UHGV virus genome: UHGV-0370399 | Strand: one strand, 5' to 3' | Source of the DNA: a virus | Length of the DNA stretch: 64,000 nucleotides | Shown: positions 24,010 through 48,208 of the stretch, one piece after another | Layout of the letters: every line of letters begins with the position of its first letter | Position numbering within the stretch: position 1 is the first letter of the stretch | The notes under the pieces: model-generated | Told to the model about the DNA's origin: nothing | Databases searched by the model: none | The model's input: the letters and a program-made list of their open reading frames with translations, nothing else | Position numbers and translations under genes: made by a program

Positions 24010-25110
24010 CTATTCATAATCCCTAATAACTAACCCGACAGGGAACTGTAAAGAACCCTTACGAGTCATCTTCTGAAACTGAACCGTTAAAGGCTTCCCG
24101 ATAAACTCTTCAGGATGTTCAGCAAGATACTGTTTCTTCTCGTGTGTAGTCTTCCATGAGACATCTACAAAGACGTTAGGAAGCGTCTCTACAACGAACT
24201 TACCATGACCACGTTTATCGGTCTTGACACCAGTAACTTTAAACTCTTCAGTGTGCATCTTCTTGTGCTTAATCAAGAAGTATGAACGGTGACTACACTC
24301 GTAGAAAGATTCTTCAGAGATTGAACGGTACATTGCACCTTCAAACTTAGCTTCAACCCACTTATCATGGGCTTCATCAAACTCTTCCCAAGAATTTACA
24401 CGGATAGTCTGTACAGGAACAACTCTACAGGTATCCCCAAGCTCAACAATTGGTGAATTATCAATAACTTCACGACGCTCAGGCCAAGTTTTTGAATTGT
24501 CGCAGATATCATACCAGTAGAATTTAAGAAGGTGACGGTCTGGATTGTCAGCATTCTTAATCATAGATACAATATCTTCTAAGTCCCAACCATGAGCATA
24601 AATCTCTCCATCAAAGTCTTCCACTTGCGGATGTAATTTAAGCAACAAAAGCAAATCTGGGATTAGTTCTGTTGGAACGTTGTAAACAGTATTCTCACGA
24701 GAATAGGCTGTGAAACTAACTGAATCAGCATCTCTTGAAATCCTACAACGTACACCATCAAGTTTTGGTTGAGCATCAGCAGGGAACTTCAGATACTTTG
24801 CATGGCTAACCTTTGCAGCATCATGAGCAAGCTGTACACCTACCTTCTCAGTATTCTGTGCAGATTCTTTTGTATAAGCATAACCTTTACGGTCAACTTG
24901 CTTTTTATACTTAGCAGCAACTTCAAAGAGAGCTTGCTGTTCAGCGTTACGCTCATTCTTTTTACCGATGTTCTTAGGCTCTGCTGTATACTCTTCAAAC
25001 ATCATCTTGCCATTCTCTTTACCGTAGGTTGTAATAACTTTGTCACCTACAGCAACACATGACCAGACGTTAAAAGAGCCGTCTTTATTTTGTTTGTACA
25101 GAATTGTCAT
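24010..25110 (-). CDS. ATP-dependent DNA ligase
   Basis: Adenylation motif KLDGVRC (KxDG) and size about 366 aa typical of phage ATP ligases. Confidence 0.85.
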   Translation of the reverse strand: MTILYKQNKDGSFNVWSCVAVGDKVITTYGKENGKMMFEEYTAEPKNIGKKNERNAEQQALFEVAAKYKKQVDRKGYAYTKESAQNTEKVGVQLAHDAAKVSHAKYLKFPADAQPKLDGVRCRISRDADSVSFTAYSRENTVYNVPTELIPDLLLLLKLHPQVEDFDGEIYAHGWDLEDIVSMIKNADNPDRHLLKFYWYDICDNSKTWPERREVIDNSPIVELGDTCRVVPVQTIRVNSWEEFDEAHDKWVEAKFEGAMYRSISEESFYECSHRSYFLIKHKKMHTEEFKVTGVKTDKRGHGKFVVETLPNVFVDVSWKTTHEKKQYLAEHPEEFIGKPLTVQFQKMTRKGSLQFPVGLVIRDYE

Positions 25111-25313
25111 TTTCTCTTACCACCAATCTCTACGTCGATAACTTGAACATCGCCAGCAACATCAAACTTATGTATGATGCTTTCCACAGTATAAGTCCAA
25201 CCATCAATGCGAACCATCTCACCTTCTCGTGGAACTATTGGATTACGTTGAGCTACAGTTGTAGTGGAGTGAACAACATCATAACGATAGATATAGTTTA
25301 CTAGGACTTCCAT
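25107..25313 (-). CDS. hypothetical protein
   Basis: ORF-track start 25412 is TTG; the ATG at 25313 has SD gagtgagg and avoids overlap with the lipoprotein gene; start is uncertain. Confidence 0.3.
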   Translation of the reverse strand: MEVLVNYIYRYDVVHSTTTVAQRNPIVPREGEMVRIDGWTYTVESIIHKFDVAGDVQVIDVEIGGKRK

Positions 25314-25323
25314 CGTGAAAACC

Positions 25324-25560
25324 TCACTCAATAACCGTAGTATGTGATTGTCCATTTTTGCCATAGCTGTAAGATGTTGTTGTTTGAGAGTTTGGACATC
25401 TGACAACAACAATATCTCTGCTTATAGCATCACCATGTAACTTGTATACTCTGCAATCTTGCATCTCTGGTGGGAGGCTATAAGAAGCATTTTTATCTTC
25501 ATAAGAAGGGTTGCAGCCAGATAGAAAAATAACACCAAGCGCAATTACCACTTTCCACAT
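25324..25560 (-). CDS. small lipoprotein
   Basis: MWKVVIALGVIFLSGC has a signal peptide with lipobox LSGC; SD aggag; ORF-track GTG start replaced by the ATG at 25560. Confidence 0.45.
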   Translation of the reverse strand: MWKVVIALGVIFLSGCNPSYEDKNASYSLPPEMQDCRVYKLHGDAISRDIVVVRCPNSQTTTSYSYGKNGQSHTTVIE

Positions 25561-25573
25561 AACACTACTCCTA

Positions 25574-25729
25574 TTACTGTTCACGATGTTCTACTTCTCT
25601 GTACGTTCGTCGATAGTATATAATAAGCTGTGCTAACTCGTTGCTTTTAACATCTGAACGTAGCAGTTGCCAATCAAAACCTTTACCGACTCTTCCATAT
25701 AAACTAAACAGTTTTACTTTGCGTTTCAT
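25574..25729 (-). CDS. hypothetical small basic protein
   Basis: ORF-track start is TTG; first in-frame ATG is at 25729. Confidence 0.25.
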   Translation of the reverse strand: MKRKVKLFSLYGRVGKGFDWQLLRSDVKSNELAQLIIYYRRTYREVEHREQ

Positions 25730-25745
25730 TTTGGTATACCAATAC

Positions 25746-25958
25746 TCAGAAGTCAATATTAATACGTTCGCCCTTAAGGACTCCAGTACGGTCTCTTGCA
25801 ATCTTGCCGTCAACAATAAGGATATGTGCAGCCCTTAAAGAGTCACTATTAAAAGCTTTTACGAACTTACTAGGCATCACTACAATGGGCATCTCCTGAA
25901 TCAACTCTGGAGTATAGCAATTGTCGTGAAGTTGCTGAATAACGTCTGCAAGTGTCAT
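25746..25958 (-). CDS. hypothetical protein
   Basis: ORF-track start is TTG; ATG at 25958 has SD ggaga. Confidence 0.3.
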   Translation of the reverse strand: MTLADVIQQLHDNCYTPELIQEMPIVVMPSKFVKAFNSDSLRAAHILIVDGKIARDRTGVLKGERINIDF

Positions 25959-26164
25959 TTTTGATGTCTCCAATACTCAATGTCAATAAGTTCTTGTGCA
26001 ATGCTTTTAAGGTTACCTTTCAAGAAAACCTTCTCAGAACCTGAAAGAGATGAATTGTCAATTAACCTGTTCATTCTCTCAAACAACTTCTGCTTACGAT
26101 TTTTGATAGTCTCCTTTGAAGCACCTTTCATCATTGCTGCATGGGTTCTTCCACGATGGCTCAT
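25955..26164 (-). CDS. hypothetical small basic protein
   Basis: ATG with SD aggaggg; 69 aa, K/R-rich. Confidence 0.35.
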   Translation of the reverse strand: MSHRGRTHAAMMKGASKETIKNRKQKLFERMNRLIDNSSLSGSEKVFLKGNLKSIAQELIDIEYWRHQK

Positions 26165-26215
26165 AATCCCTCCTATACAAGATGTAGTATAAGGTACTCT
26201 TCCCTGAGCACCTTG

Positions 26216-26740
26216 TCAACTTAGTTTTGCAAACTCTCCGTGGAGTTTAATAGCAGCTTCACAGTAAGCTTTATGGGCTTCTTCTGGTGTGTCAAACATA
26301 CCAAGATGATAGTTTTTACCTTGTAAACGTATCATTGCTCGAAACCTTTTACTTATCTTCTGTACACCTTTTGGCAACCCAGATGGGGACTTTCTTGACC
26401 GATTGCAAGAGTTTTGTGAAGCTGTACAAACCCTTAAATTCAAGTACCTATTGTCCCAACCGTCCCCATTCTTATGGTCAACCTGTAAGTTTTTATCAGG
26501 CAGGTATCCATCCACATATAGTATTGCTAGACGGTTAGCTTGGTAGCCTTTACCATCAAGCAATAACTGAACAGACTTGTGACCATCTGTGTTTATCCTA
26601 TAATTTCCTGCCTTTTTACCTCCAAAACGAGAGTTGAAGTTCTTATTGCCTCGTGATACCGGCTCTCTAAACTTCCAAGTAAAGACCCCTGTTTCGGGGT
26701 CGTAGTCCAATAGCTCCTTAAGACGAATTTCTGTAATCAT
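26216..26740 (-). CDS. HNH homing endonuclease with AP2-type DNA-binding domain
   Basis: YDPETGVFTW, HKNGDGWDNRYLNLRVCTASQN (HNH) and GKNYHLGMFDTPEEA (AP2-like); paralogue of 36343-36843; sits immediately 3' of the DNA polymerase gene. Confidence 0.8.
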   Translation of the reverse strand: MITEIRLKELLDYDPETGVFTWKFREPVSRGNKNFNSRFGGKKAGNYRINTDGHKSVQLLLDGKGYQANRLAILYVDGYLPDKNLQVDHKNGDGWDNRYLNLRVCTASQNSCNRSRKSPSGLPKGVQKISKRFRAMIRLQGKNYHLGMFDTPEEAHKAYCEAAIKLHGEFAKLS

Positions 26741-26750
26741 TTCAACACCA

Positions 26751-29450
26751 TCAATGTACTTCCAACCAGCTCTTACCAACCTTACCTGTGCCAGTTACAA
26801 GCGTCTCACTCTTCAAACCTAAATTCTTAGATGCCTGACCATACATCCAGTCAGTTATGGCTTTCACTTCTTGAGTCATACTTTCTGGACATTCCCAACT
26901 GTTTTCATCGTGGTATGCCAGCAAAAGCCTAGCACCAATTGCTGGTTTTCGTCCATTTAATTTTGTCAACCCTTCTTCACATGCTCTTCTACAAGCAAGG
27001 TTAATTGCCTCATTTTGAATCTGAGCCTCCGAACCCATGAGCAAATAATTCAATAACTTATGTGGAGATTTACACCACAACCAAGCTCCAGCAACCTTTA
27101 CAAAACCCCCTTTAGAGATTGCAGCAGTCTTACCAAACACCTCTTCAAGTGCCTTTTTAGTTGCTTTGTAGTCAGCTTCCAAGTCATCTAACAGCTTCTT
27201 AATTTTAGGCAAACGGATAAAGTAAGTCTGTTTAGTCAGCGCACCTTCCTGAGTAGTTGCAGCCTTAATCGTCTTAGCAAACTTCTCATCACCTGCACCG
27301 AACAGCAGTGCATAGATACCATTCTTAGCTTTCTTACGGCCTTTGCTAATCTCATGAAGAAGATTCTCATCCTGAGTAGCTCGACAAGTCAAGATATCCT
27401 GCTCATCATTCAAGCTAAAGTAAATACTGTTCAATGTATGTGCATCAGTCCCTGAATAGACAACGTACAGGTCATTCTCAGAGTCATAGCGAAGGTACTT
27501 ATCAATCTCTGGGTTGAGGTACTCATCAAAATGTTTGCAGTAATAGCGTCCATCTTCTTGACGAATGAACTCAATTTCTTCTTTACCTTGCGTTACCGCT
27601 TTGGTGAAGTCTTTATCACCCATAAAGTTACAAAGAAGAACTAGCTGGGCTGAGTTCATATCTACAGAGACAACGTTAGTACCTTCCTCACAAATCCATA
27701 CTGCCCTCATTGGTTCTCCATAGACAGCAGCACCAGACGGTACGTTTACAATACCATACTGTGTCATACGTCCAGTTGAAGTACCAAACACCATTGCACC
27801 AGCACTAAGGCGACCATCAGGACGAATCTGGTTAAGCCAACCTTTTTCATCATCCTTTGAGTTCTCAATAGTTCTGCGTCGGTGCATCAAAGTATAGTAC
27901 TTAGCAATCTTCTGTCCAAGCTCACCTTCAATCGTATCATAAGATGATTCAGTAAGTTTTGGTGAAGTACGGATTAAGCAAGGTTCAAGCAAATCTGTGT
28001 ATTTCTTCACAGACCAGTTATGCTCGATGTACTGTACACCTTCATGTTCAACATAACTCAAACCACACCGCTCAACCATTTCCTGCCACTTAGGATGCTT
28101 TGTAATCATCTTTTTATTGTCTTTGAAACGACAAACTTTGACAGGGCGACCATCTGAGTCTTTCTTGTAATTCCAGTCATCTGGAACCCAACCAACTGAT
28201 TTCAAGTAGTCTTTAACAACTGCTACCTGAGTCATACGAGAAACTTCAAACTCAATTGGTGTATATGGCGCATCAATCAAACCTGTGTAGCGACTTGACT
28301 CAAGTTCAAAGTGGTTAACAACGTGGCTGTTATAGTACTTCACAGTTTTGACTGTTTTTACTGGTTTCCAGTCTTTGCATTTCTTACCAATCTTTGCGTT
28401 CAACTCATTGCAAATTGCACGAGCATCCTTCATTGCTACAAAACCCTCCTTGTACTCTTCACCAGTTACAGAGTTGGTTGGTGTATAGCAATTTCTCTTT
28501 TCAATGTTAAAAATCTTTGTAGTTGGCTTACCAAATGGTTTGATTTCATAAGTCTGCATCTCACCATTACGCACCTGCTGACGATACTTCGTCTTAGGGT
28601 ACTTGGTAATTCTTTTCAGTCCATCTGCATGACCAAATGCTTCAACATACTCATTCCAAGCTTTTGCAAACTCTTCTCCAGTGACTTTACCTTTGGTCTT
28701 AATAGTTGGAGGTAGATGCGGTTCAACTTCTGAAGCAAGCTCATTAGTCAACTTGTCAAGTTCCTTTACATGGAACTCCATAAGCTCTTTATCAGCTTTC
28801 CAGCCATTGATAGCTTGTTGACTCATCCAGAAAGATGTTTCTTTAGCTCGCATGTAGGTTTCATAAGTGTCTATGCCACACTTCTTAAGCTTGAGATATT
28901 CATTATCAAGTGCCCGTTTAGTTTTGGCGTTAATACGGATATCTTCTACAACACGAGTGAAGATTTCTGCATTCCACACACCCCAATGTTCAATCTCTGG
29001 TTTACGAACACCAACACGAGCACCCCATGCAGCCAAACCATGAGCACCTTTATAGCCCTTTGGAGTTGGTCTATCCATCCACTGAACACGAGACTGGATA
29101 AGAGAATCCTGAAAGAAATTACTCCACGGTTTACACTTTGGATTATCAAAGTTCCATAAATCAGGTGCAATGTGATTGAAAACCCACCAGTCATAACCGA
29201 GACCATTATGGATGCAAAGACGTTTTGCCTTTAACGCAAACTCAATGCCTTCACGTAAGCCACCCTTAATGTACTTGGTATACTTGTGACCGAGGATAGG
29301 CTCATCTGTAAAGACCCATACAGGCGGCTCTTCATCGTCAGATTTATAGTCTGCGAAAGCCATTACGTGCACTTTAGTGAACTCAAGGAGTAAACCATCA
29401 GTTTCTGTATCACCAACTAAATGTAAGTTTTTAAAATCTACGTTTTCCAT
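26751..29450 (-). CDS. family A DNA polymerase with 3'-5' exonuclease domain
   Basis: Exo motif VGDTETDGL near the N-terminus; polymerase motifs DMNSAQL, K..YG and YHDE; start placed at the ATG with SD gagggag (ORF-track start is 10 codons upstream). Confidence 0.9.
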   Translation of the reverse strand: MENVDFKNLHLVGDTETDGLLLEFTKVHVMAFADYKSDDEEPPVWVFTDEPILGHKYTKYIKGGLREGIEFALKAKRLCIHNGLGYDWWVFNHIAPDLWNFDNPKCKPWSNFFQDSLIQSRVQWMDRPTPKGYKGAHGLAAWGARVGVRKPEIEHWGVWNAEIFTRVVEDIRINAKTKRALDNEYLKLKKCGIDTYETYMRAKETSFWMSQQAINGWKADKELMEFHVKELDKLTNELASEVEPHLPPTIKTKGKVTGEEFAKAWNEYVEAFGHADGLKRITKYPKTKYRQQVRNGEMQTYEIKPFGKPTTKIFNIEKRNCYTPTNSVTGEEYKEGFVAMKDARAICNELNAKIGKKCKDWKPVKTVKTVKYYNSHVVNHFELESSRYTGLIDAPYTPIEFEVSRMTQVAVVKDYLKSVGWVPDDWNYKKDSDGRPVKVCRFKDNKKMITKHPKWQEMVERCGLSYVEHEGVQYIEHNWSVKKYTDLLEPCLIRTSPKLTESSYDTIEGELGQKIAKYYTLMHRRRTIENSKDDEKGWLNQIRPDGRLSAGAMVFGTSTGRMTQYGIVNVPSGAAVYGEPMRAVWICEEGTNVVSVDMNSAQLVLLCNFMGDKDFTKAVTQGKEEIEFIRQEDGRYYCKHFDEYLNPEIDKYLRYDSENDLYVVYSGTDAHTLNSIYFSLNDEQDILTCRATQDENLLHEISKGRKKAKNGIYALLFGAGDEKFAKTIKAATTQEGALTKQTYFIRLPKIKKLLDDLEADYKATKKALEEVFGKTAAISKGGFVKVAGAWLWCKSPHKLLNYLLMGSEAQIQNEAINLACRRACEEGLTKLNGRKPAIGARLLLAYHDENSWECPESMTQEVKAITDWMYGQASKNLGLKSETLVTGTGKVGKSWLEVH

Positions 29451-29511
29451 TTTTACTCCCTCTAAAATCATTAACCTCATACATTACTGCAAAAAATTAT
29501 AAAAAGCAAGT

Positions 29512-34398: not shown

Positions 34399-35256
34399 AT
34401 GTCTAAAGTTGTTAAAATGAAAGCTCCGGTAGAGAAGTACAACGGTACTGAACGTCAAACTCTGCGTTACCTGCTGAAAGATGTCTGGTTTTATTACCTG
34501 AACACTTCACCACGTCCGGGTAAAGGTAAATCTATTGACAAGAAATTCCCAGGAAAAGATTGTAACTACAGCGTATCAATTCTGGCAGAAGACGGTAACA
34601 AACTCTTTAAAGAGTTTACTAAGTCTAAGAAGAACCCAGAAGGTTGGGATAAAGTTACTACTGAAGCAGTTGATGCAGATGACTTCGAAGAGAAGTTTGG
34701 TTGCAAACCACCTTTTGAAGCAGACACTTACTACATCTTGAAAGTAAGTCGTGCAGCAGCTTATAAAGATGGTGCTGTATGGACAGCTAAACAGTCATTC
34801 CCTGTTATGCTTATTGAAGAAGTAAATGGTAAGCGTGTAGCTGTTAAACAGCCGATGAAGAAAATTAAAGCTCAAGCATCTGATAAACACGAAGATGACA
34901 AGAACTATGATGTAATTCATCCAGATATTGCAGTTGGTAACGGTTCTTTTGGTAGTGTGATTCTTTCTACTCACTTCTACACTTTTGAGAACAATGTTCT
35001 GACAAAACCTATTCAGGAACAGTTTATCATTGATACTCTTGTACCTTACACTGGTGGTAACGGTGCTAATGGTGAACCTGAACTGGATGAAGATGAACTG
35101 GCTATGCTTGGTCTTGATGGTGTTGAAGATAACGGTGAAATCACTGAAGAAGACGCAACAGACCATAAATCTTCGAATGATTCTGATGATGGTGATGATG
35201 AAGACTTGCCAGACCCAGATGACGAAGAAGATGAAGACTTCGATACAGAAGACTAA
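34399..35256 (+). CDS. putative single-stranded DNA-binding protein
   Basis: 285 aa with very acidic C-terminal tail (DEDLPDPDDEEDEDFDTED), as in phage SSBs; located between the helicase and flap endonuclease genes. Confidence 0.5.
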   Translation: MSKVVKMKAPVEKYNGTERQTLRYLLKDVWFYYLNTSPRPGKGKSIDKKFPGKDCNYSVSILAEDGNKLFKEFTKSKKNPEGWDKVTTEAVDADDFEEKFGCKPPFEADTYYILKVSRAAAYKDGAVWTAKQSFPVMLIEEVNGKRVAVKQPMKKIKAQASDKHEDDKNYDVIHPDIAVGNGSFGSVILSTHFYTFENNVLTKPIQEQFIIDTLVPYTGGNGANGEPELDEDELAMLGLDGVEDNGEITEEDATDHKSSNDSDDGDDEDLPDPDDEEDEDFDTED

Positions 35257-35276
35257 TCTCTAAAAGTTACTTTAAA

Positions 35277-35304
35277 GCCCTGTACTTAGTATGGGGCTTT
35301 TTCA
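35277..35304 (+). terminator. putative intrinsic terminator
   Basis: AAGCCC ... GGGCTT stem with 13 nt loop followed by TTTT. Confidence 0.5.
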
Positions 35305-35318
35305 TATGGAGAGCCATA

Positions 35319-36365
35319 ATGGAGAAGTACACATTAACAAAACTTCCCGATTCAGTTACACATGTTTTTATTGACTCTGACAGTATTGCCTATAAAGGCG
35401 CTTGTGTAGTTGAGAAAGCAAAATATAAATATGTCAATAAACTCACAGCAGAAGAATCTGAATCATTTGATAATGCAAAAGATGCTGCAAGATGGTTAGC
35501 AGACCAGAGAATCCTTGTGGAAGAGCTTGGCCTGACATTTGATGAAGATGAATGGGAAAGACAGACTTGGAAAGAAGCTAAGAGTGAAAAAGAAGCTATC
35601 ATGGCTACTCAACAGGTGCTTCAGGAATGGCTTAAGATTGTTGGTAAAGAGAGAACTTGGGTAGGTTATTTAACAGAGAAAGGTGTGCATAAACATAAAG
35701 ACATTAAAGGTCTTGAGCACCAATATCAAGGTAACCGCAAAGATGCTGTCACACCAACACACTTAGTTGCTTGTCGTGAGTATCTTCTGTCAAGACCAGA
35801 GTTTAAATTGATTCTTGATGGATTTGAAGCTGACTCTATCGTTATCGCTAAAGCTGAAAAGATGGGAAAAAAGGCTGCCTTAATGAGTATTGATAAAGAC
35901 CTTCGCCAAGCTGAAGGTACTTACTGCATTGATATGACCTATGAAAAATCACCTTTAATTTTCATTGCTGATAACAACGTTGGTGAAATTTGGGATTGTC
36001 CAATAAAATCGACACCAAAAGCTAAGAAGACAGTTGGTGTAGGTTTTAAATTTCTTTGTTATCAAGCTGTGGCTGGTGATAATGCGGATAATTACTTTGG
36101 TTTAAAGGGTGTTGGCAAAGCTGCTGTGATGAAGGCTCTTGAAGGGAAAACAACTTACAAAGAGTGTCTTGATGCAATTTACGAGCTATATGCTAAGAAA
36201 GACTCCTACACTTATGTATCATGGGATGGTCAAACAATTACCAGAACACCTTTAGAATTAATGCAGCAACACTTTTTCTTAGCTTATCAGGAAAGAAATA
36301 AAAAAGACGATTTTACTTTTGATAAGTATGGGTGGACACCAAATGTTAACTCAACAAACTCTTAA
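35319..36365 (+). CDS. 5'-3' exonuclease / flap endonuclease
   Basis: N-terminal VFIDSDSIAY PIN-like motif and GDNADNYFGLKGVGKAA helix-3-turn-helix motif typical of the FEN / Pol I 5' exonuclease family. Confidence 0.85.
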   Translation: MEKYTLTKLPDSVTHVFIDSDSIAYKGACVVEKAKYKYVNKLTAEESESFDNAKDAARWLADQRILVEELGLTFDEDEWERQTWKEAKSEKEAIMATQQVLQEWLKIVGKERTWVGYLTEKGVHKHKDIKGLEHQYQGNRKDAVTPTHLVACREYLLSRPEFKLILDGFEADSIVIAKAEKMGKKAALMSIDKDLRQAEGTYCIDMTYEKSPLIFIADNNVGEIWDCPIKSTPKAKKTVGVGFKFLCYQAVAGDNADNYFGLKGVGKAAVMKALEGKTTYKECLDAIYELYAKKDSYTYVSWDGQTITRTPLELMQQHFFLAYQERNKKDDFTFDKYGWTPNVNSTNS

Positions 36366-36843
36366 AGAATACCTGCACTATGACCCCGAAACAGGGGTCT
36401 TTACTTGGTTAGTTGGTAGAAGAGGTAAGGCCAAAGCTGGCTCAGTAGCAGGTCTTAAACACCATAGTGGTTATATCTATATAAAACTCTTCGGAAAAAG
36501 ATATGCAGCACACAGACTGGCAGTCTTGTATATGAAAGGCTACCTCCCAAAATTTGTTGACCACAAGAATGGTATCAGGCACGACAACTGGTTCGACAAT
36601 TTGAGAGAGTGTAGCAGGTCAGACAACAACTGCAATGCAGTCAAAAGAAAAGATAATAAGTCTGGTGTGAAGGGTGTATATTACCACAAGCAAAGAGGTA
36701 GATGGGCTGCACAAGTCAAGCATAATAAAGTATGCTACCATCTAGGTTTATTTGACTCTATCACTGAGGCTGAATCAGTTGTCAAAAAGAAAAGAGAAGA
36801 ACTACATAAAGAGTTTTCAAATCACGGAGAAGCTTATGAATGA
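36343..36843 (+). CDS. HNH homing endonuclease with AP2-type domain
   Basis: YDPETGVFTW, HKNGIRHDNWFDNLRECSRSDN and GVKGVYYHK..GRWAAQV; ORF-track start is TTG, ATG at 36343 (or 36328) is more likely; overlaps the 3' end of the FEN gene. Confidence 0.8.
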   Translation: MLTQQTLKEYLHYDPETGVFTWLVGRRGKAKAGSVAGLKHHSGYIYIKLFGKRYAAHRLAVLYMKGYLPKFVDHKNGIRHDNWFDNLRECSRSDNNCNAVKRKDNKSGVKGVYYHKQRGRWAAQVKHNKVCYHLGLFDSITEAESVVKKKREELHKEFSNHGEAYE

Positions 36844-37337
36844 AGATTAAAGGATTTGGCAATTGCCCTACCTATGGTCATTGGGTGTCTTTATGTGGGG
36901 AAGTTGACCCCACTAAACATTTTGGCTTTGTCTATTTAGTGCACTGTAAGAAGACTGGACAATATTATATCGGAAAGAAACAGCTTAACAGTGTGACCAA
37001 AAGAAAAGTTGCTGGGAAGACTCGGAAGAAGGTAGTCACTAAGGAAAGTGATTGGATGACTTACGAAACCTCTTCTGAGTATATTAAAAAAGATATTGAG
37101 AGCTTTGGAAAAGAATTTTTTGACTTTTACATTATCCAAACCTACTACACAAAAGGTGGCCTAGTCTATGGTGAAGCAAACCTTCAACATAAATTCGATG
37201 TAATGACAAAAAGGATTGACTCTAAGCTCAGACTCTTCTACAATGCCAATATTGCAGCAATTAAGTTTATTACTAAAGAAACTTATGAAGATGCTGAAAA
37301 AAGAATCCATAAGGTAATGAAAGCAAATTGTGCTTGA
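36840..37337 (+). CDS. putative GIY-YIG endonuclease domain protein
   Basis: FGFVYLVHCKKTGQYYIGK resembles the GIY...YIG motif pair; ATGA overlap with the preceding HNH gene. Confidence 0.5.
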   Translation: MKIKGFGNCPTYGHWVSLCGEVDPTKHFGFVYLVHCKKTGQYYIGKKQLNSVTKRKVAGKTRKKVVTKESDWMTYETSSEYIKKDIESFGKEFFDFYIIQTYYTKGGLVYGEANLQHKFDVMTKRIDSKLRLFYNANIAAIKFITKETYEDAEKRIHKVMKANCA

Positions 37338-37358
37338 TAACTATTGAGAGAGAATAAA

Positions 37359-37589
37359 ATGTTTAACAAAAGCAAAGCTGTGAGTCATGTAGCAAAAGTT
37401 GACAGTAAGATTGAAGAACTTGAGCGCATTCTTGCAAATGCTAGAGAGTCAATAATTAAAGAAGTTGAAGCTGTTGAATCACAAATGCAGCATCTAATAC
37501 TTAAACGCCAAGAGCTACGTGAGCATCTGGAATATATTGAAACACGAGAGCTAAAGGTTAACAGATTTTTAAGGAGTCCAAATGTTTAA
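37359..37589 (+). CDS. hypothetical coiled-coil protein
   Basis: ORF-track start is TTG; ATG at 37359 has SD gagagag. Confidence 0.35.
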   Translation: MFNKSKAVSHVAKVDSKIEELERILANARESIIKEVEAVESQMQHLILKRQELREHLEYIETRELKVNRFLRSPNV

Positions 37590-38337
37590 CTCAAGAGAAG
37601 CAGTAAAAAACTGGAATCTTCGTTGTGGAAACACTCAAAAGCAACCTTACAGTGATGAGTATTGGGAATCTTTAAAATCCCAGTCTCTGTGTATGCTGGA
37701 AGAAGCAAAAGAGCTTGTAAAAGCAATTGAAGAGAAAGACCCCATTGAGACACTGGATGCTCAGGCAGATTTGCAATATGTTCTTGACGGTTTGATTTAC
37801 CTGTCACAACATGACCATAACGGTGCTATGAAAGCTGTTTGCCGTAATAATGACCTGAAGTACACAGATGACTATGAAGAAGCTTTAAAACGTCTTGCAG
37901 ATATTGAGAAGCGTACTGGTCAAGAGTGTATTATCAGAATGTCAGTAGTTGATGGTAAAGAGTGGTATGCCATTGTTCGTGCAGCAGATGGGAAGATTAT
38001 GAAGCAATCGAATCTCCCTAAAGTACAGCTTGGTGAATACATTGTAGAACTTGAAAGCCAAGAACTTTTTGTGGTAGTATCTGAGACATGCGTTATCTGC
38101 AAAGGTATTGTAGATAGTTTAAAGGATTTAGGTGTAGATGGTTTTGTAGAAGTTAATCCAATTACCTCTAAAGCAGATAAAGACTTCTGTAAAGAGAATG
38201 GACTATGGATTGCAGACATTATCTACTATGATGGTGAGCAGTTCCATGTAACCTCATACCCGAAACTGAATTATGATGCTAATAACCTGAAGTGCTGGTT
38301 AAAAGGGGTTGGTTATAATGGATTCACAGAACATTAA
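37582..38337 (+). CDS. hypothetical protein with MazG-like N-terminus and CxxC thioredoxin-like C-terminus
   Basis: EEAKELVKAIEEKD...DLQYVLDGL resembles the MazG pyrophosphohydrolase EExxE/D motifs; C-terminal VVVSETCVICKG; SD aaggag. Confidence 0.4.
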   Translation: MFNSREAVKNWNLRCGNTQKQPYSDEYWESLKSQSLCMLEEAKELVKAIEEKDPIETLDAQADLQYVLDGLIYLSQHDHNGAMKAVCRNNDLKYTDDYEEALKRLADIEKRTGQECIIRMSVVDGKEWYAIVRAADGKIMKQSNLPKVQLGEYIVELESQELFVVVSETCVICKGIVDSLKDLGVDGFVEVNPITSKADKDFCKENGLWIADIIYYDGEQFHVTSYPKLNYDANNLKCWLKGVGYNGFTEH

Positions 38338-38641
38338 TAAAGAGGGTGTGGCTCAGAAGAGCCACTTCTCAAACTACAATATTTCTATGACGGTGTTTAT
38401 GAATGACCCGTTACTAGAAAAATATGGTGAGACTCCAGATACACTTCTGGACAATGAACAAGTTTTAAAAGCAGTCCTGTACAAATACGGGATTGATATT
38501 GAGAAAGAATATTCCTTTGAAATCTGCCAACACAGGAATACTTTCGGTAAAGTTGTGATGGCTCCACTCTTTATGGGTGTAGAAAGGACTGACTATGGTT
38601 GGTTGTATCTAAAAAGAAACTTGGAGAAATACCGTGTCTAA
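38318..38641 (+). CDS. hypothetical protein
   Basis: ORF-track start is TTG; ATG at 38318 has SD aagggg. Confidence 0.3.
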   Translation: MDSQNINKEGVAQKSHFSNYNISMTVFMNDPLLEKYGETPDTLLDNEQVLKAVLYKYGIDIEKEYSFEICQHRNTFGKVVMAPLFMGVERTDYGWLYLKRNLEKYRV

Positions 38642-47692: not shown

Positions 47693-48208
47693 ATGTATCT
47701 GTCAAACCTGAAACGTTCGGCTGCAATGTCAGTTCTAAGACTCAGCTTTGAGGAACGTCAAGAATTTATAGACTCCCACAAATATGACCCTTCAAATTCT
47801 AATCACATGGTTCTTTGGAATCGTGATAACTTCCGTGAAAGAGCACTTGTCCGTTATTACCCACACTACACAATAGATAACCTGTATGAATGGTGTGTTG
47901 TGAAGAACACCATTGCAACACTGAACAATCTTTGCAGGTATACGGGTAAGCAAACATTTACACTAGGCCACCACAAACCTGTTACAAAAGGTGGTGAACA
48001 TCACTGTGCGAACTGGTTTATCCAAACTAAAGCTGATAACCAGAAGCAAGGAGATAGCCTCCTAAGTATCCCTAAGATGACCTATGAAGAGCAAGAGAAA
48101 TATATCAAAAATAATATGCCAGATGTGCTTGACAACAACTATACAGATTTGGCAATATCTCTCCTGTTGAAGTTCGAGACAGTTTATAGGGCAACTTATA
48201 ATGGCTAA
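47693..48208 (+). CDS. hypothetical protein with HNH-like nuclease motif
   Basis: LGHHKPVTKGGEHHCANWFIQTKADNQKQGD resembles the HH...GG...N...N core of HNH nucleases; SD ggaga. Confidence 0.4.
   Translation: MYLSNLKRSAAMSVLRLSFEERQEFIDSHKYDPSNSNHMVLWNRDNFRERALVRYYPHYTIDNLYEWCVVKNTIATLNNLCRYTGKQTFTLGHHKPVTKGGEHHCANWFIQTKADNQKQGDSLLSIPKMTYEEQEKYIKNNMPDVLDNNYTDLAISLLLKFETVYRATYNG

Follow-up and report, generated by a model that had tools for sequence, protein, structure and literature searches.

Putative mobile HNH/AP2 homing endonuclease genes and a conserved GIY-YIG gene beside replication genes of a Felix O1-like phage

Gene content of the locus

The window, that is the whole stretch of 64,000 nt analysed here (UHGV-0370399), is the genome of a Felixounavirus, Felix O1-like. 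Its nuclease-related genes, the replication genes that flank two of them and the other features considered are collected in Table 1.

Table 1. Position of the genes and sequence features discussed in the text (window coordinates)
Feature	Position	Strand	Basis
Second putative free-standing HNH_3+AP2 homing endonuclease gene	26216..26740	-	Pfam, PHROG 99, site occupancy
Hairpin GACCCC-GAAACA-GGGGTC, identical to that at 36382..36399, near the 5' end of the coding sequence of the HNH gene beside the polymerase	26684..26701	-	
Family A DNA polymerase gene, host gene beside the second HNH site	26751..29480	-	Pfam DNA_pol_A; uninterrupted in the window
5'-3' exonuclease (FEN-like) gene, flanking the insertion site	35319..36365	+	PHROG 107 (8e-66); Pfam 5_3_exonuc weak; junction alignments
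Low-divergence (gene-conversion) tract	36315..36874	.	560 nt with a single mismatch to relative L008
Putative free-standing HNH_3+AP2 homing endonuclease gene, allele A, at the exonuclease/GIY junction	36343..36843	+	Pfam, PHROG, weak I-HmuI (1u3e) match
Perfect 6-bp GC hairpin GACCCC-GAAACA-GGGGTC, then TTTACTT, in the HNH 5' coding region	36382..36399	+	Codes DPETGV
GIY-YIG (SegE-type) single-domain protein gene, fixed Ounavirinae core gene	36840..37337	+	PF19835
Conserved gene (PHROG 3500) with weak HNH-like similarity, not a mobile insertion	47693..48208	+	PHROG, record survey

Two genes, one at the end of the exonuclease gene and one beside the DNA polymerase gene, encode products that both belong to PHROG 99 'HNH endonuclease'. 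A first-pass annotation of this DNA had described them as HNH/AP2 paralogues, and domain searches agree: the product of 36343-36843 matches Pfam HNH_3 (4e-12, 46 bits, cut-off 24.8) and AP2 (4e-8, 33.8 bits, just above the cut-off of 33.3), and that of 26216-26740 matches HNH_3 (2e-12) and, at the same position as in its paralogue, AP2 with 28.2 bits, below the cut-off. The two proteins share 41% identity (E 2e-28); the N-terminal segment YDPETGVFTW is indeed common to both, as had been pointed out, and is encoded by an identical 27-nt stretch. The residues VDHKNG...DN..NLR...N of the 36343-36843 product align with I-HmuI, placing the HNH catalytic motif in this protein; the catalytic motifs of the HNH/AP2 genes are intact. 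No NCBIfam model was matched by any of the four proteins considered (the two HNH/AP2 products, the GIY-YIG-like one and the product of 47693-48208).

The upstream gene had been called a flap endonuclease; its identity as a 5'-3' exonuclease is given by PHROG 107, and the Pfam match to 5_3_exonuc is weak (E 0.002). The overlaps reported for this region are correct: the HNH ATG at 36343 leaves 23 nt shared with the 3' end of the exonuclease gene, and the HNH stop TGA (36841-36843) forms an ATGA with the start of the GIY-YIG-like gene (hereafter GIY-like), whose ATG is at 36840. The exonuclease and GIY-like reading frames are intact on both sides of the HNH gene, which is thus free-standing, and an Rfam search of the window for introns found none. 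The second HNH gene lies, as had been stated, beside the 3' end of the polymerase gene. It is placed in the interval from the polymerase stop to a promoter-like hexamer, TTGACA (26219-26214), that belongs to the next gene and contains the HNH stop TGA (26218-26216). In some relatives the polymerase gene is interrupted, at the equivalent of the boundary 27309/27308, by a group I intron that may or may not include an HNH reading frame.

Site occupancy and allelic diversity

Occupancy was compared at 28 IMG/VR loci for the exonuclease/GIY junction, where locus L005 is the window itself, and at 32 IMG/VR loci for the polymerase 3' site; for the former, about 260-270 GenBank records containing the locus were also considered, with occupancy estimated from allele-specific counts.

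The exonuclease/GIY junction is empty in 16 of the 28 loci, and also in ESCO45 and in Erwinia phage phiEa21-4; in the remaining 12 it is occupied by one of three HNH alleles, A, B or C, which have 55-59% protein identity. The GenBank counts are 43 for A, 21 for B and 18 for C, giving ~82 occupied records and, by this estimate, an empty junction in roughly 70% of the relatives. Felix O1 carries allele A (~95% identity). Occupancy is scattered over the clades, since occupied and empty genomes coexist both where the GIY-like genes are 87% identical and where they are 99% identical.

Empty sites are precise, and their structure is the same from clade to clade and in the Erwinia phage that serves as outgroup. 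In these genomes the exonuclease gene directly overlaps the GIY-like ATG (...TGGGAGCCGTGTATGAATGAAGATTAA), the junction in ESCO45 or UAB_Phi87 reading ...TGGGAGCCGTGTATGAATGAAGATTAAAGG..., and junction alignments show an exonuclease C-terminus, ...KKYNWEPCMNED followed by the stop, that is absent from occupied genomes. In the window, the last ~30 nt of the exonuclease gene (C-terminal ...DKYGWTPNVNSTNS, then the stop) come from the HNH element; the inserted or replaced segment spans ~36336-36835, with a net gain of 491 nt relative to the empty site. The HNH alleles that compete for this single site have conserved 5' and 3' ends around a divergent middle (~50% identical).

At the polymerase 3' site, 18 of the 32 loci are occupied, 12 are empty (...CACTAATTAGTATTGACAAGG...) and two are differently organised. 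At least four alleles occur here, with 39-54% protein identity to that of the window. Comparison of L056 with L034 gives 70% nucleotide identity for the polymerase gene and 94% for the HNH gene, which points to one HNH transfer across genera at this site. Within HNH alleles dN/dS is 0.05-0.19, indicating that the proteins are functional; one A-allele copy, that of L010 (phage Si3), lacks 1 nt of a C-run, which may reflect decay or an error of sequencing.

Gene conversion at the exonuclease site

The near-identical tract shared by the window and L008 is centred on the HNH gene, in flanks that are 4-9% diverged; the exonuclease gene of L008 differs from that of the window at ~50 sites per kb, and dS, which is 0.24 in the exonuclease gene and 0.11 in the GIY-like gene, falls to 0 in the HNH gene. 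A similar pattern is seen between L017 and L023 (7 mismatches in 633 nt, 13.6% divergence upstream), and between L006 and L011 the breakpoint coincides exactly with the HNH ATG. The restriction of such tracts to the HNH gene, in genomes otherwise 4-16% diverged, indicates recent gene conversion. The flanks are mosaic: the 3' end of the exonuclease gene and the 5' end of the GIY-like gene form haplotypes with 72-83% identity, in a background of 95-97%. Hence both polymorphic occupancy and lateral transfer with co-conversion are observed for the gene at 36343-36843, and polymorphic occupancy with lateral transfer for its paralogue. Not all occupancy is recent: between genera, allele B has an HNH dS of 1.5 against 1.4 for the exonuclease gene, and because the two values are alike, some of it must be old and vertically inherited.

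The GIY-YIG-like gene and the gene at 47693-48208

The GIY-like product, 165 residues long, matches Pfam SegE_GIY-YIG (PF19835) over residues 21-138 (9e-28, 97 bits). Residues Y32, Y43, G45, E112 and N135 show no variation and R62 a conservation of at least 90%, so that the catalytic domain is present; the catalytic residues are unchanged down to 47% identity. Support for the fold is weak. A comparison with PDB chain sequences gave nothing meaningful, and no separate DNA-binding domain appeared in Pfam even at E up to 10; it is possible that a small DNA-binding module was overlooked by this search. A literature search for PF19835 or SegE_GIY-YIG returned nothing.

At each of the 28 IMG/VR loci the gene occupies the same position, and it is found in 298 GenBank records by blastn (~297 at 60% or more by tblastn); it is present in every Ounavirinae genome examined, including phages of Erwinia, Hafnia and Yersinia, and in at least four genera. 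No empty site was seen among the 28 loci and the GenBank Ounavirinae relatives; the presence/absence polymorphism expected of a mobile gene is therefore lacking. Its divergence follows that of the flanking exonuclease gene, and its dN/dS, 0.03-0.055 at dS above 1.5, is at the level of that gene. The distribution and substitution pattern thus mark it as a fixed resident gene under strong purifying selection, not part of any recent insertion, and its product is most likely a housekeeping or domesticated nuclease; DNA processing beside the exonuclease, or attack on host DNA, are candidate roles. Translationally coupled to whatever reading frame lies upstream, the gene is joined to the exonuclease gene at empty sites and to the HNH gene at occupied ones. 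GenBank annotators often name it 'GIY-YIG homing endonuclease'. Both this label and 'NAD synthetase', which are widespread for the gene that follows the exonuclease, are probably misleading.

The gene at 47693-48208 had been listed as a further HNH-like protein. This similarity consists of a weak match to PHROG 2214 'HNH endonuclease' (2e-6, residues 58-124) and of an HNH-like motif seen by eye; a Pfam search of the product gave no HNH match, and a PDB search returned spurious matches to protein A repeats and none to HNH proteins. The gene is full-length in 241 of 255 records, with an identity that drops with taxonomic distance (78% in sister genera), and no empty site was seen; it is a core gene and shows no sign of mobility.

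The first-pass annotation had presented 36343-37337 as a cluster of recent mobile endonuclease insertions, to be checked by synteny with related phages. This comparison gives different results gene by gene: the HNH/AP2 junctions are polymorphic, while the positions of the GIY-like gene and of 47693-48208 are constant. Thus the supposed cluster would be one mobile HNH gene upstream of a fixed, adjoining GIY-YIG-domain gene. Recent mobile insertion holds for the two HNH/AP2 genes, with their polymorphic junctions, divergent alleles and near-identity tracts; it fails for 47693-48208 and is refuted for the GIY-like gene by its identical position and flank-like divergence in the relatives.

A conserved hairpin in the HNH/AP2 genes

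In the window the pattern GACCCC-N6-GGGGTC has exactly two occurrences, one in each HNH/AP2 gene; in shuffled sequences the expectation is 0. Located ~40 nt into the alleles, its stem is unchanged in all Felixounavirus HNH/AP2 alleles at both sites, and the loop has five variants. Four rare codons make up the stem: in 13 large genes of the window 1.8% of the Pro codons are CCC, and such a set of codons would jointly arise by chance with a probability of 6e-5. The folding energy is -11.4 kcal/mol, and a simple scan calls the hairpin terminator-like. A conservation test on the eight exonuclease-site haplotypes was underpowered (about p = 0.28) and was dropped; the argument is built on codon usage together with the full set of alleles from the two sites.

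These features suggest, only tentatively, that the hairpin has a function of its own in cis, rather than merely following from the conservation of the peptide YDPxTGV. One candidate role is that of an intragenic attenuator or terminator, which would limit endonuclease expression from read-through transcripts. Another is that of an operator for the AP2 domain of the endonuclease itself; AP2 domains are reported to prefer GC-rich DNA. As a third candidate, the hairpin may act as a shared homology or cleavage anchor for replacement by rival alleles, which would explain the conserved ends around a ~50%-identical middle.

Proposed mechanism and alternative explanations

Taken together, the two HNH/AP2 genes are very probably mobile, free-standing homing endonuclease genes, and the GIY-like gene and 47693-48208 fixed core genes. 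During mixed infection the HNH enzyme would nick or cut the genome of a relative without the gene, near the conserved overlap of exonuclease stop and GIY-like start or just 3' of the polymerase stop; the cleavage activity is a prediction, and its target is deduced from the comparison of junctions. For DNA binding the enzymes have the AP2 domain, and their catalytic motif is I-HmuI-like. Recombinational repair off the endonuclease-bearing genome would then copy in the HNH gene together with short flanks. The elements seem built to spare their neighbours: that at the exonuclease site brings its own exonuclease C-terminus and preserves the ATGA coupling downstream, and that at the polymerase site ends within the -35-like hexamer of the next gene.

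The polymorphism of the HNH genes could also be read as repeated loss of ancestral resident genes, decaying passengers that never gained ground by homing. The similar divergence of allele B and its flanks between genera, and the possibly frameshifted copy of L010, would fit this explanation; repeated deletion, however, would not regenerate precise, identical empty sites with a distinct exonuclease C-terminus, the near-identity HNH tracts and the 94% identical HNH gene beside a 70% identical polymerase gene require lateral transfer, and the low dN/dS within alleles speaks of maintained function, so that loss is a very unlikely account. That all four genes are recently inserted free-standing homing endonuclease genes is extremely unlikely: every one has some nuclease-type similarity, the GIY-like gene often carries the homing endonuclease label in GenBank and PF19835 is named for T4 SegE, but the GIY-like gene and 47693-48208 stay in place in essentially all relatives and diverge according to taxonomy, and the former combines the absence of empty sites and of a DNA-binding domain with strong constraint at high dS.

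It is less easy to dismiss, although still rather unlikely, that the GIY-like gene is a selfish homing endonuclease that became fixed in Ounavirinae and is still active, e.g. against more distant phages. Its SegE-type Pfam family, its intact catalytic residues and its place beside a replication gene, typical of homing endonucleases, agree with this, as do cyanomyovirus homologues in variable regions, such as syn9 gp202. A fixed selfish gene would be expected to decay, yet this gene, compared across genera in which dS is saturated, is under purifying selection as strong as the exonuclease gene; moreover, its 165 residues hold no recognisable DNA-binding module and occupancy is 100% over at least four genera. 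A functional two-gene nuclease unit, formed by the HNH and GIY-like proteins through their ATGA-coupled frames, is hardly credible. Single proteins with both H-N-H and GIY-YIG motifs are described, e.g. I-CreII, and the overlap would suit such a unit; most relatives, however, have the GIY-like gene without the HNH gene, coupled to the exonuclease gene instead, three unrelated HNH alleles accompany the same GIY-like gene, and the polymerase-site paralogue has no GIY partner. A two-subunit nuclease was rejected because the two genes are distributed independently.

Relation to known systems and significance

I-HmuI and I-HmuII are intron-encoded HNH nicking endonucleases from the DNA polymerase genes of Bacillus phages SPO1 and SP82. 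I-HmuI (PDB 1u3e) is the best match of the HNH region among proteins of solved structure (E 0.018), including DHK(N/D)G...N..NLR; unlike I-HmuI, which has a different C-terminal DNA-binding region, the genes described here are free-standing, lie in intergenic or 3'-overlapping positions and carry AP2. The free-standing Seg and Mob proteins of T-even phages (SegE, SegG, MobE) are homing endonucleases that act with co-conversion of flanking markers. The HNH/AP2 genes resemble them in their polymorphism among close relatives, in their insertion between or overlapping conserved genes, in short co-conversion tracts and in mosaic flanks, but belong to another phage lineage and have several divergent alleles competing for one site. 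The GIY-like product, for its part, has retained the motif residues of the T4 SegE family (PF19835), namely GIY/YIG, Arg, Glu and Asn; in distribution it differs from homing endonuclease genes, being fixed, under purifying selection and limited to a catalytic domain.

The combination of HNH and AP2 is a recognised homing endonuclease architecture, whose genes, in the account of Barth et al. 2023 (PMC10448857), cluster near polymerase genes; the same account, following Magnani et al. 2004, places it in phages, cyanobacteria and protists, and includes the 'IPA-HNH' of phage ICP1. The present proteins share with the enzymes described there the N-terminal HNH, the C-terminal AP2, the free-standing state and the frequent location beside polymerase or replisome genes; unlike the ICP1 genes they match the canonical Pfam HNH_3 directly. 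Felix O1 is reported to have six HNH endonuclease copies, and its relatives two to three or more, scattered over the genome (Whichard et al. 2010, PMC3185647; PMC8300805); the searched text of these two papers does not resolve which sites are occupied and by which alleles, nor the conversion tracts, the fixation of the GIY-like gene or the conserved hairpin.

The mobile HNH genes are thus an ordinary, already described kind of feature, conceptually the same as that known from T-even, SPO1-like and ICP1 phages. The 3' end of the exonuclease gene, the 5' end of the GIY-like gene and the polymerase 3' junction would be hot spots of endonuclease-driven recombination, best left out of trees of Felix O1-like phages used for therapy or typing. 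With three alleles at one site and natural empty sites, the exonuclease/GIY junction would make a convenient model, outside T4, for homing and for competition between alleles.

Probable homing endonuclease genes at two variable junctions

Megablast against GenBank phages revealed about 260 Felix O1-like genomes, members of Felixounavirus and sister genera of Ounavirinae, matching 34399-38641 and 24010-29480 at 90-98% identity; among the IMG/VR loci compared (L-numbers), L005 and L033 are the window's own, from contig IMGVR_UViG_3300045988_004931 (100% identical). Records named for unrelated hosts, Campylobacter phage A132/A126 (MG065664/MG065668) and Staphylococcus phage SA1 (GU169904), also match this Felixounavirus region at 90-95% identity and are likely to reflect contamination or chimeric assembly. 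An ORF map and direct reading confirmed the ORF positions and overlaps at 36343-37337 and 26216-26740. Pfam identified HNH_3 and AP2 domains in both small ORFs, whose products are 41% identical and fall together in phrog_99 (PHROGs), in agreement with the two paralogues proposed by the first-pass annotation.

Coordinates of the genes and sequence features at the two junctions
Feature	Position	Strand	Remarks
5'-3' exonuclease gene	35319-36365		ORF map, direct reading
Haplotype flank, exonuclease 3' end	36020-36335		
HNH ORF	ATG 36343, stop 36841-36843	+	23-nt overlap with exonuclease gene; ORF map, direct reading
Hairpin GACCCC-GAAACA-GGGGTC	36382-36399	+	perfect; HNH 5' coding region
GIY-like ORF	36840-37337		ATGA overlap with upstream HNH ORF; ORF map, direct reading
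Haplotype flank, GIY 5' end	36852-37020		
Family A polymerase gene	26751-29480		adjoins second HNH ORF
Second HNH ORF	26216-26740	-	starts 10 nt past polymerase stop
Hairpin GACCCC-GAAACA-GGGGTC	26701-26684	-	perfect; HNH 5' coding region
Polymerase-site HNH 3' end region	26214-26219 and downstream to 26164	-	

Whichard et al. 2010 (PMC3185647) counted six copies of HNH homing endonuclease genes in Felix O1, and later genus comparisons (PMC8300805) describe HNH numbers as variable across the genus. According to the BASEL paper, homing endonuclease "infestation" of larger phage genomes, and the gene conversion associated with it, generally hamper whole-genome alignment. Barth et al. 2023 (PMC10448857) describe the HNH+AP2 architecture and its frequent location close to polymerase genes, as well as recombination boundaries at which nuclease genes lie. 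The two HNH/AP2 genes are therefore a known kind of element, correctly recognised and annotated already.

At the junction between the exonuclease and GIY-like genes, representative GenBank records present four states: empty, with the exonuclease gene overlapping the GIY start (ESCO45, phiEa21-4), or occupied by HNH allele A (the window type), allele B, equal in size to A (typing phage 12 / wV8), or allele C (VpaE1). In GenBank just 43 records have a full-length allele A, and alleles B and C are found in 21 and 18, respectively. Among 28 sampled IMG/VR loci 12 are occupied (four by each allele) and 16 empty, and both the Felixounavirus clade and a clade with 87%-identical GIY genes hold occupied and empty genomes. 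In junction alignments the empty site reads ...AAATATAATTGGGAGCCGTGT-ATGAATGAAGATTAA and the occupied site ...AAGTATGGGTGG-ACACCAAATGTTAAC...(HNH)...GGAGAAGCTT-ATGAATGAAG, the inserted element spanning ~36336-36835 in the window, with a net gain of 491 nt; the element therefore provides the exonuclease with a replacement C-terminus and leaves the GIY-like gene translationally coupled.

At the polymerase site, an HNH/AP2 gene lies directly 3' of the polymerase in 18 of 32 IMG/VR loci, 12 being empty and two organised differently. Only three of the 18 are of the window type; the rest are 39-54% identical in protein and represent at least three further lineages. In the empty site the polymerase stop is followed by TTAGTA-TTGACAAGGTGCTC...., with a conserved promoter-like TTGACA hexamer 6 nt past the stop, and in the occupied site the HNH stop TGA falls within TTGACA (26219-26214, minus strand). 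The ~70-nt 3' end is nearly identical in all alleles, whose middles have the 39-54% protein identity; matches to this conserved 3' end or to more of the gene are found in about 159 of the 264 GenBank relatives.

The polymerase gene itself is interrupted in several relatives (L058-L063) at a point corresponding to ~27309/27308 on the minus strand, between codons ...KNGIYA and LLFGAGD...; L063 carries a ~270-nt group I intron without ORF (Rfam RF00028, 62 bits), and L058-L062 an ~800-nt insert with no Rfam match, which in L058, the locus for which ORFs were listed, holds a 160-aa EndoVII-type HNH ORF. In the window, the polymerase gene is intron-free.

Probable recent transfer and older occupancy

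The age assigned to the insertions by the first-pass annotation, which considered them recent, holds in part. Against a Felixounavirus background identity of 95-97%, the junction flanks (~300 nt at the exonuclease 3' end, ~175 nt at the 5' end of the GIY-like gene) occur as discrete haplotypes just 72-83% identical, which re-assort with the HNH alleles. In favor of recent transfer are tracts of near-identity centred on the HNH gene: L005 (the window) and L008 differ by one mismatch in 560 nt (36315-36874), whereas their exonuclease genes differ at ~50 sites per kb, with dS of 0 in HNH and 0.24 and 0.11 in the flanks. L017 and L023 have 7 mismatches in a 633-nt tract and are 13.6% diverged upstream of it. 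L006 and L011 have allele C in common and different exonuclease haplotypes, the breakpoint being the HNH ATG. At the polymerase site, L056 and the Felixounavirus locus L034 are only 70% identical in polymerase nucleotides and 94% in the HNH gene (L056 6051-6560), which is a case of transfer between genera, with insertion at the homologous position. However, allele B is as diverged between genera as the exonuclease gene (dS about 1.5), thus not all occupancy is recent. Within HNH alleles dN/dS is 0.05-0.19, indicating that the proteins are maintained.

Among the genomes compared, one GIY 5' haplotype was seen in occupied ones alone. In L010 (~5066; Salmonella phage Si3, allele A), the hairpin's CCCC run has lost 1 nt, a shift of the N-terminal frame that reflects either endonuclease gene decay or a homopolymer sequencing error.

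Two neighbouring core genes

The proposed homing endonuclease cluster had also included the GIY-like gene and the gene at 47693-48208, an over-extension to two neighbours that are both core genes. The synteny comparison supports insertion for the HNH/AP2 genes (occupied versus empty, 12/16 and 18/12) and opposes it for the GIY-like gene, found in 28/28 IMG/VR loci and in 298 GenBank records, Erwinia, Hafnia and Yersinia phage genera included; on these sequences it is universal in Ounavirinae. Its dN/dS (0.03-0.055) matches that of the exonuclease gene even at dS >1.5, so that a recent mobile insertion is contradicted by both position and divergence, the pattern that the first-pass annotation itself had named as refuting its reading.

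The GIY-like product belongs to SegE_GIY-YIG (PF19835, 9e-28; Pfam), and in orthologues down to 47% identity Y32, Y43, G45, E112 and N135 are invariant and R62 nearly so. The catalytic domain covers residues 21-138 of 165, and domain searches detected no further domain. The AlphaFold model is mediocre; the structures nearest to it, at low scores, are the catalytic domain of I-TevI and a restriction enzyme of the GIY-YIG type. The gene is best regarded as encoding a fixed, selected nuclease, whose role is inferred. By tblastn, homologues 30-37% identical are present in several hundred cyanomyovirus records, and the family (PF19835 / PHROG 447) has such members in certain phages of Vibrio, Stenotrophomonas and Klebsiella too. 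Cyanomyovirus and other homologues are commonly annotated "NAD synthetase" (GenBank hits H272-H299, locus L116), which looks like a propagated misannotation.

The 47693-48208 product lacks a Pfam HNH domain and matches PHROG 3500 (unknown function) and, weakly, the HNH family PHROG 2214. Being full-length in 241/255 relatives, with identity down to 78% in sister genera, it is a core gene, and its reading as a mobile insertion is not sustained.

A conserved hairpin in the HNH/AP2 coding sequence

Although their proteins are only 41% identical, the two HNH paralogues share an exact 27-nt stretch, within which lies the perfect hairpin GACCCC-GAAACA-GGGGTC. The hairpin motif GACCCC-N6-GGGGTC occurs twice in the window versus 0 in 100 shuffles. 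It is located in the 5' coding region of all Felixounavirus HNH/AP2 alleles, whichever the site, and none of them departs from its 12 stem bases, while the loop has five variants, some non-synonymous. Genome GC is 39% and the stem codons are rare (CCC 1.8% of Pro, GGG 8% of Gly, GTC 10% of Val); the probability of choosing all of them together is 6e-5. The hairpin has a folding energy of -11.4 kcal/mol and a terminator-like score in a simple scan. HNH_3/AP2 genes with the same coding hairpin were also found in unrelated phage contigs of 49-61% GC; in one homologue the peptide is encoded without it. The hairpin may serve as attenuator, as operator for the AP2 domain or as anchor in recombination.
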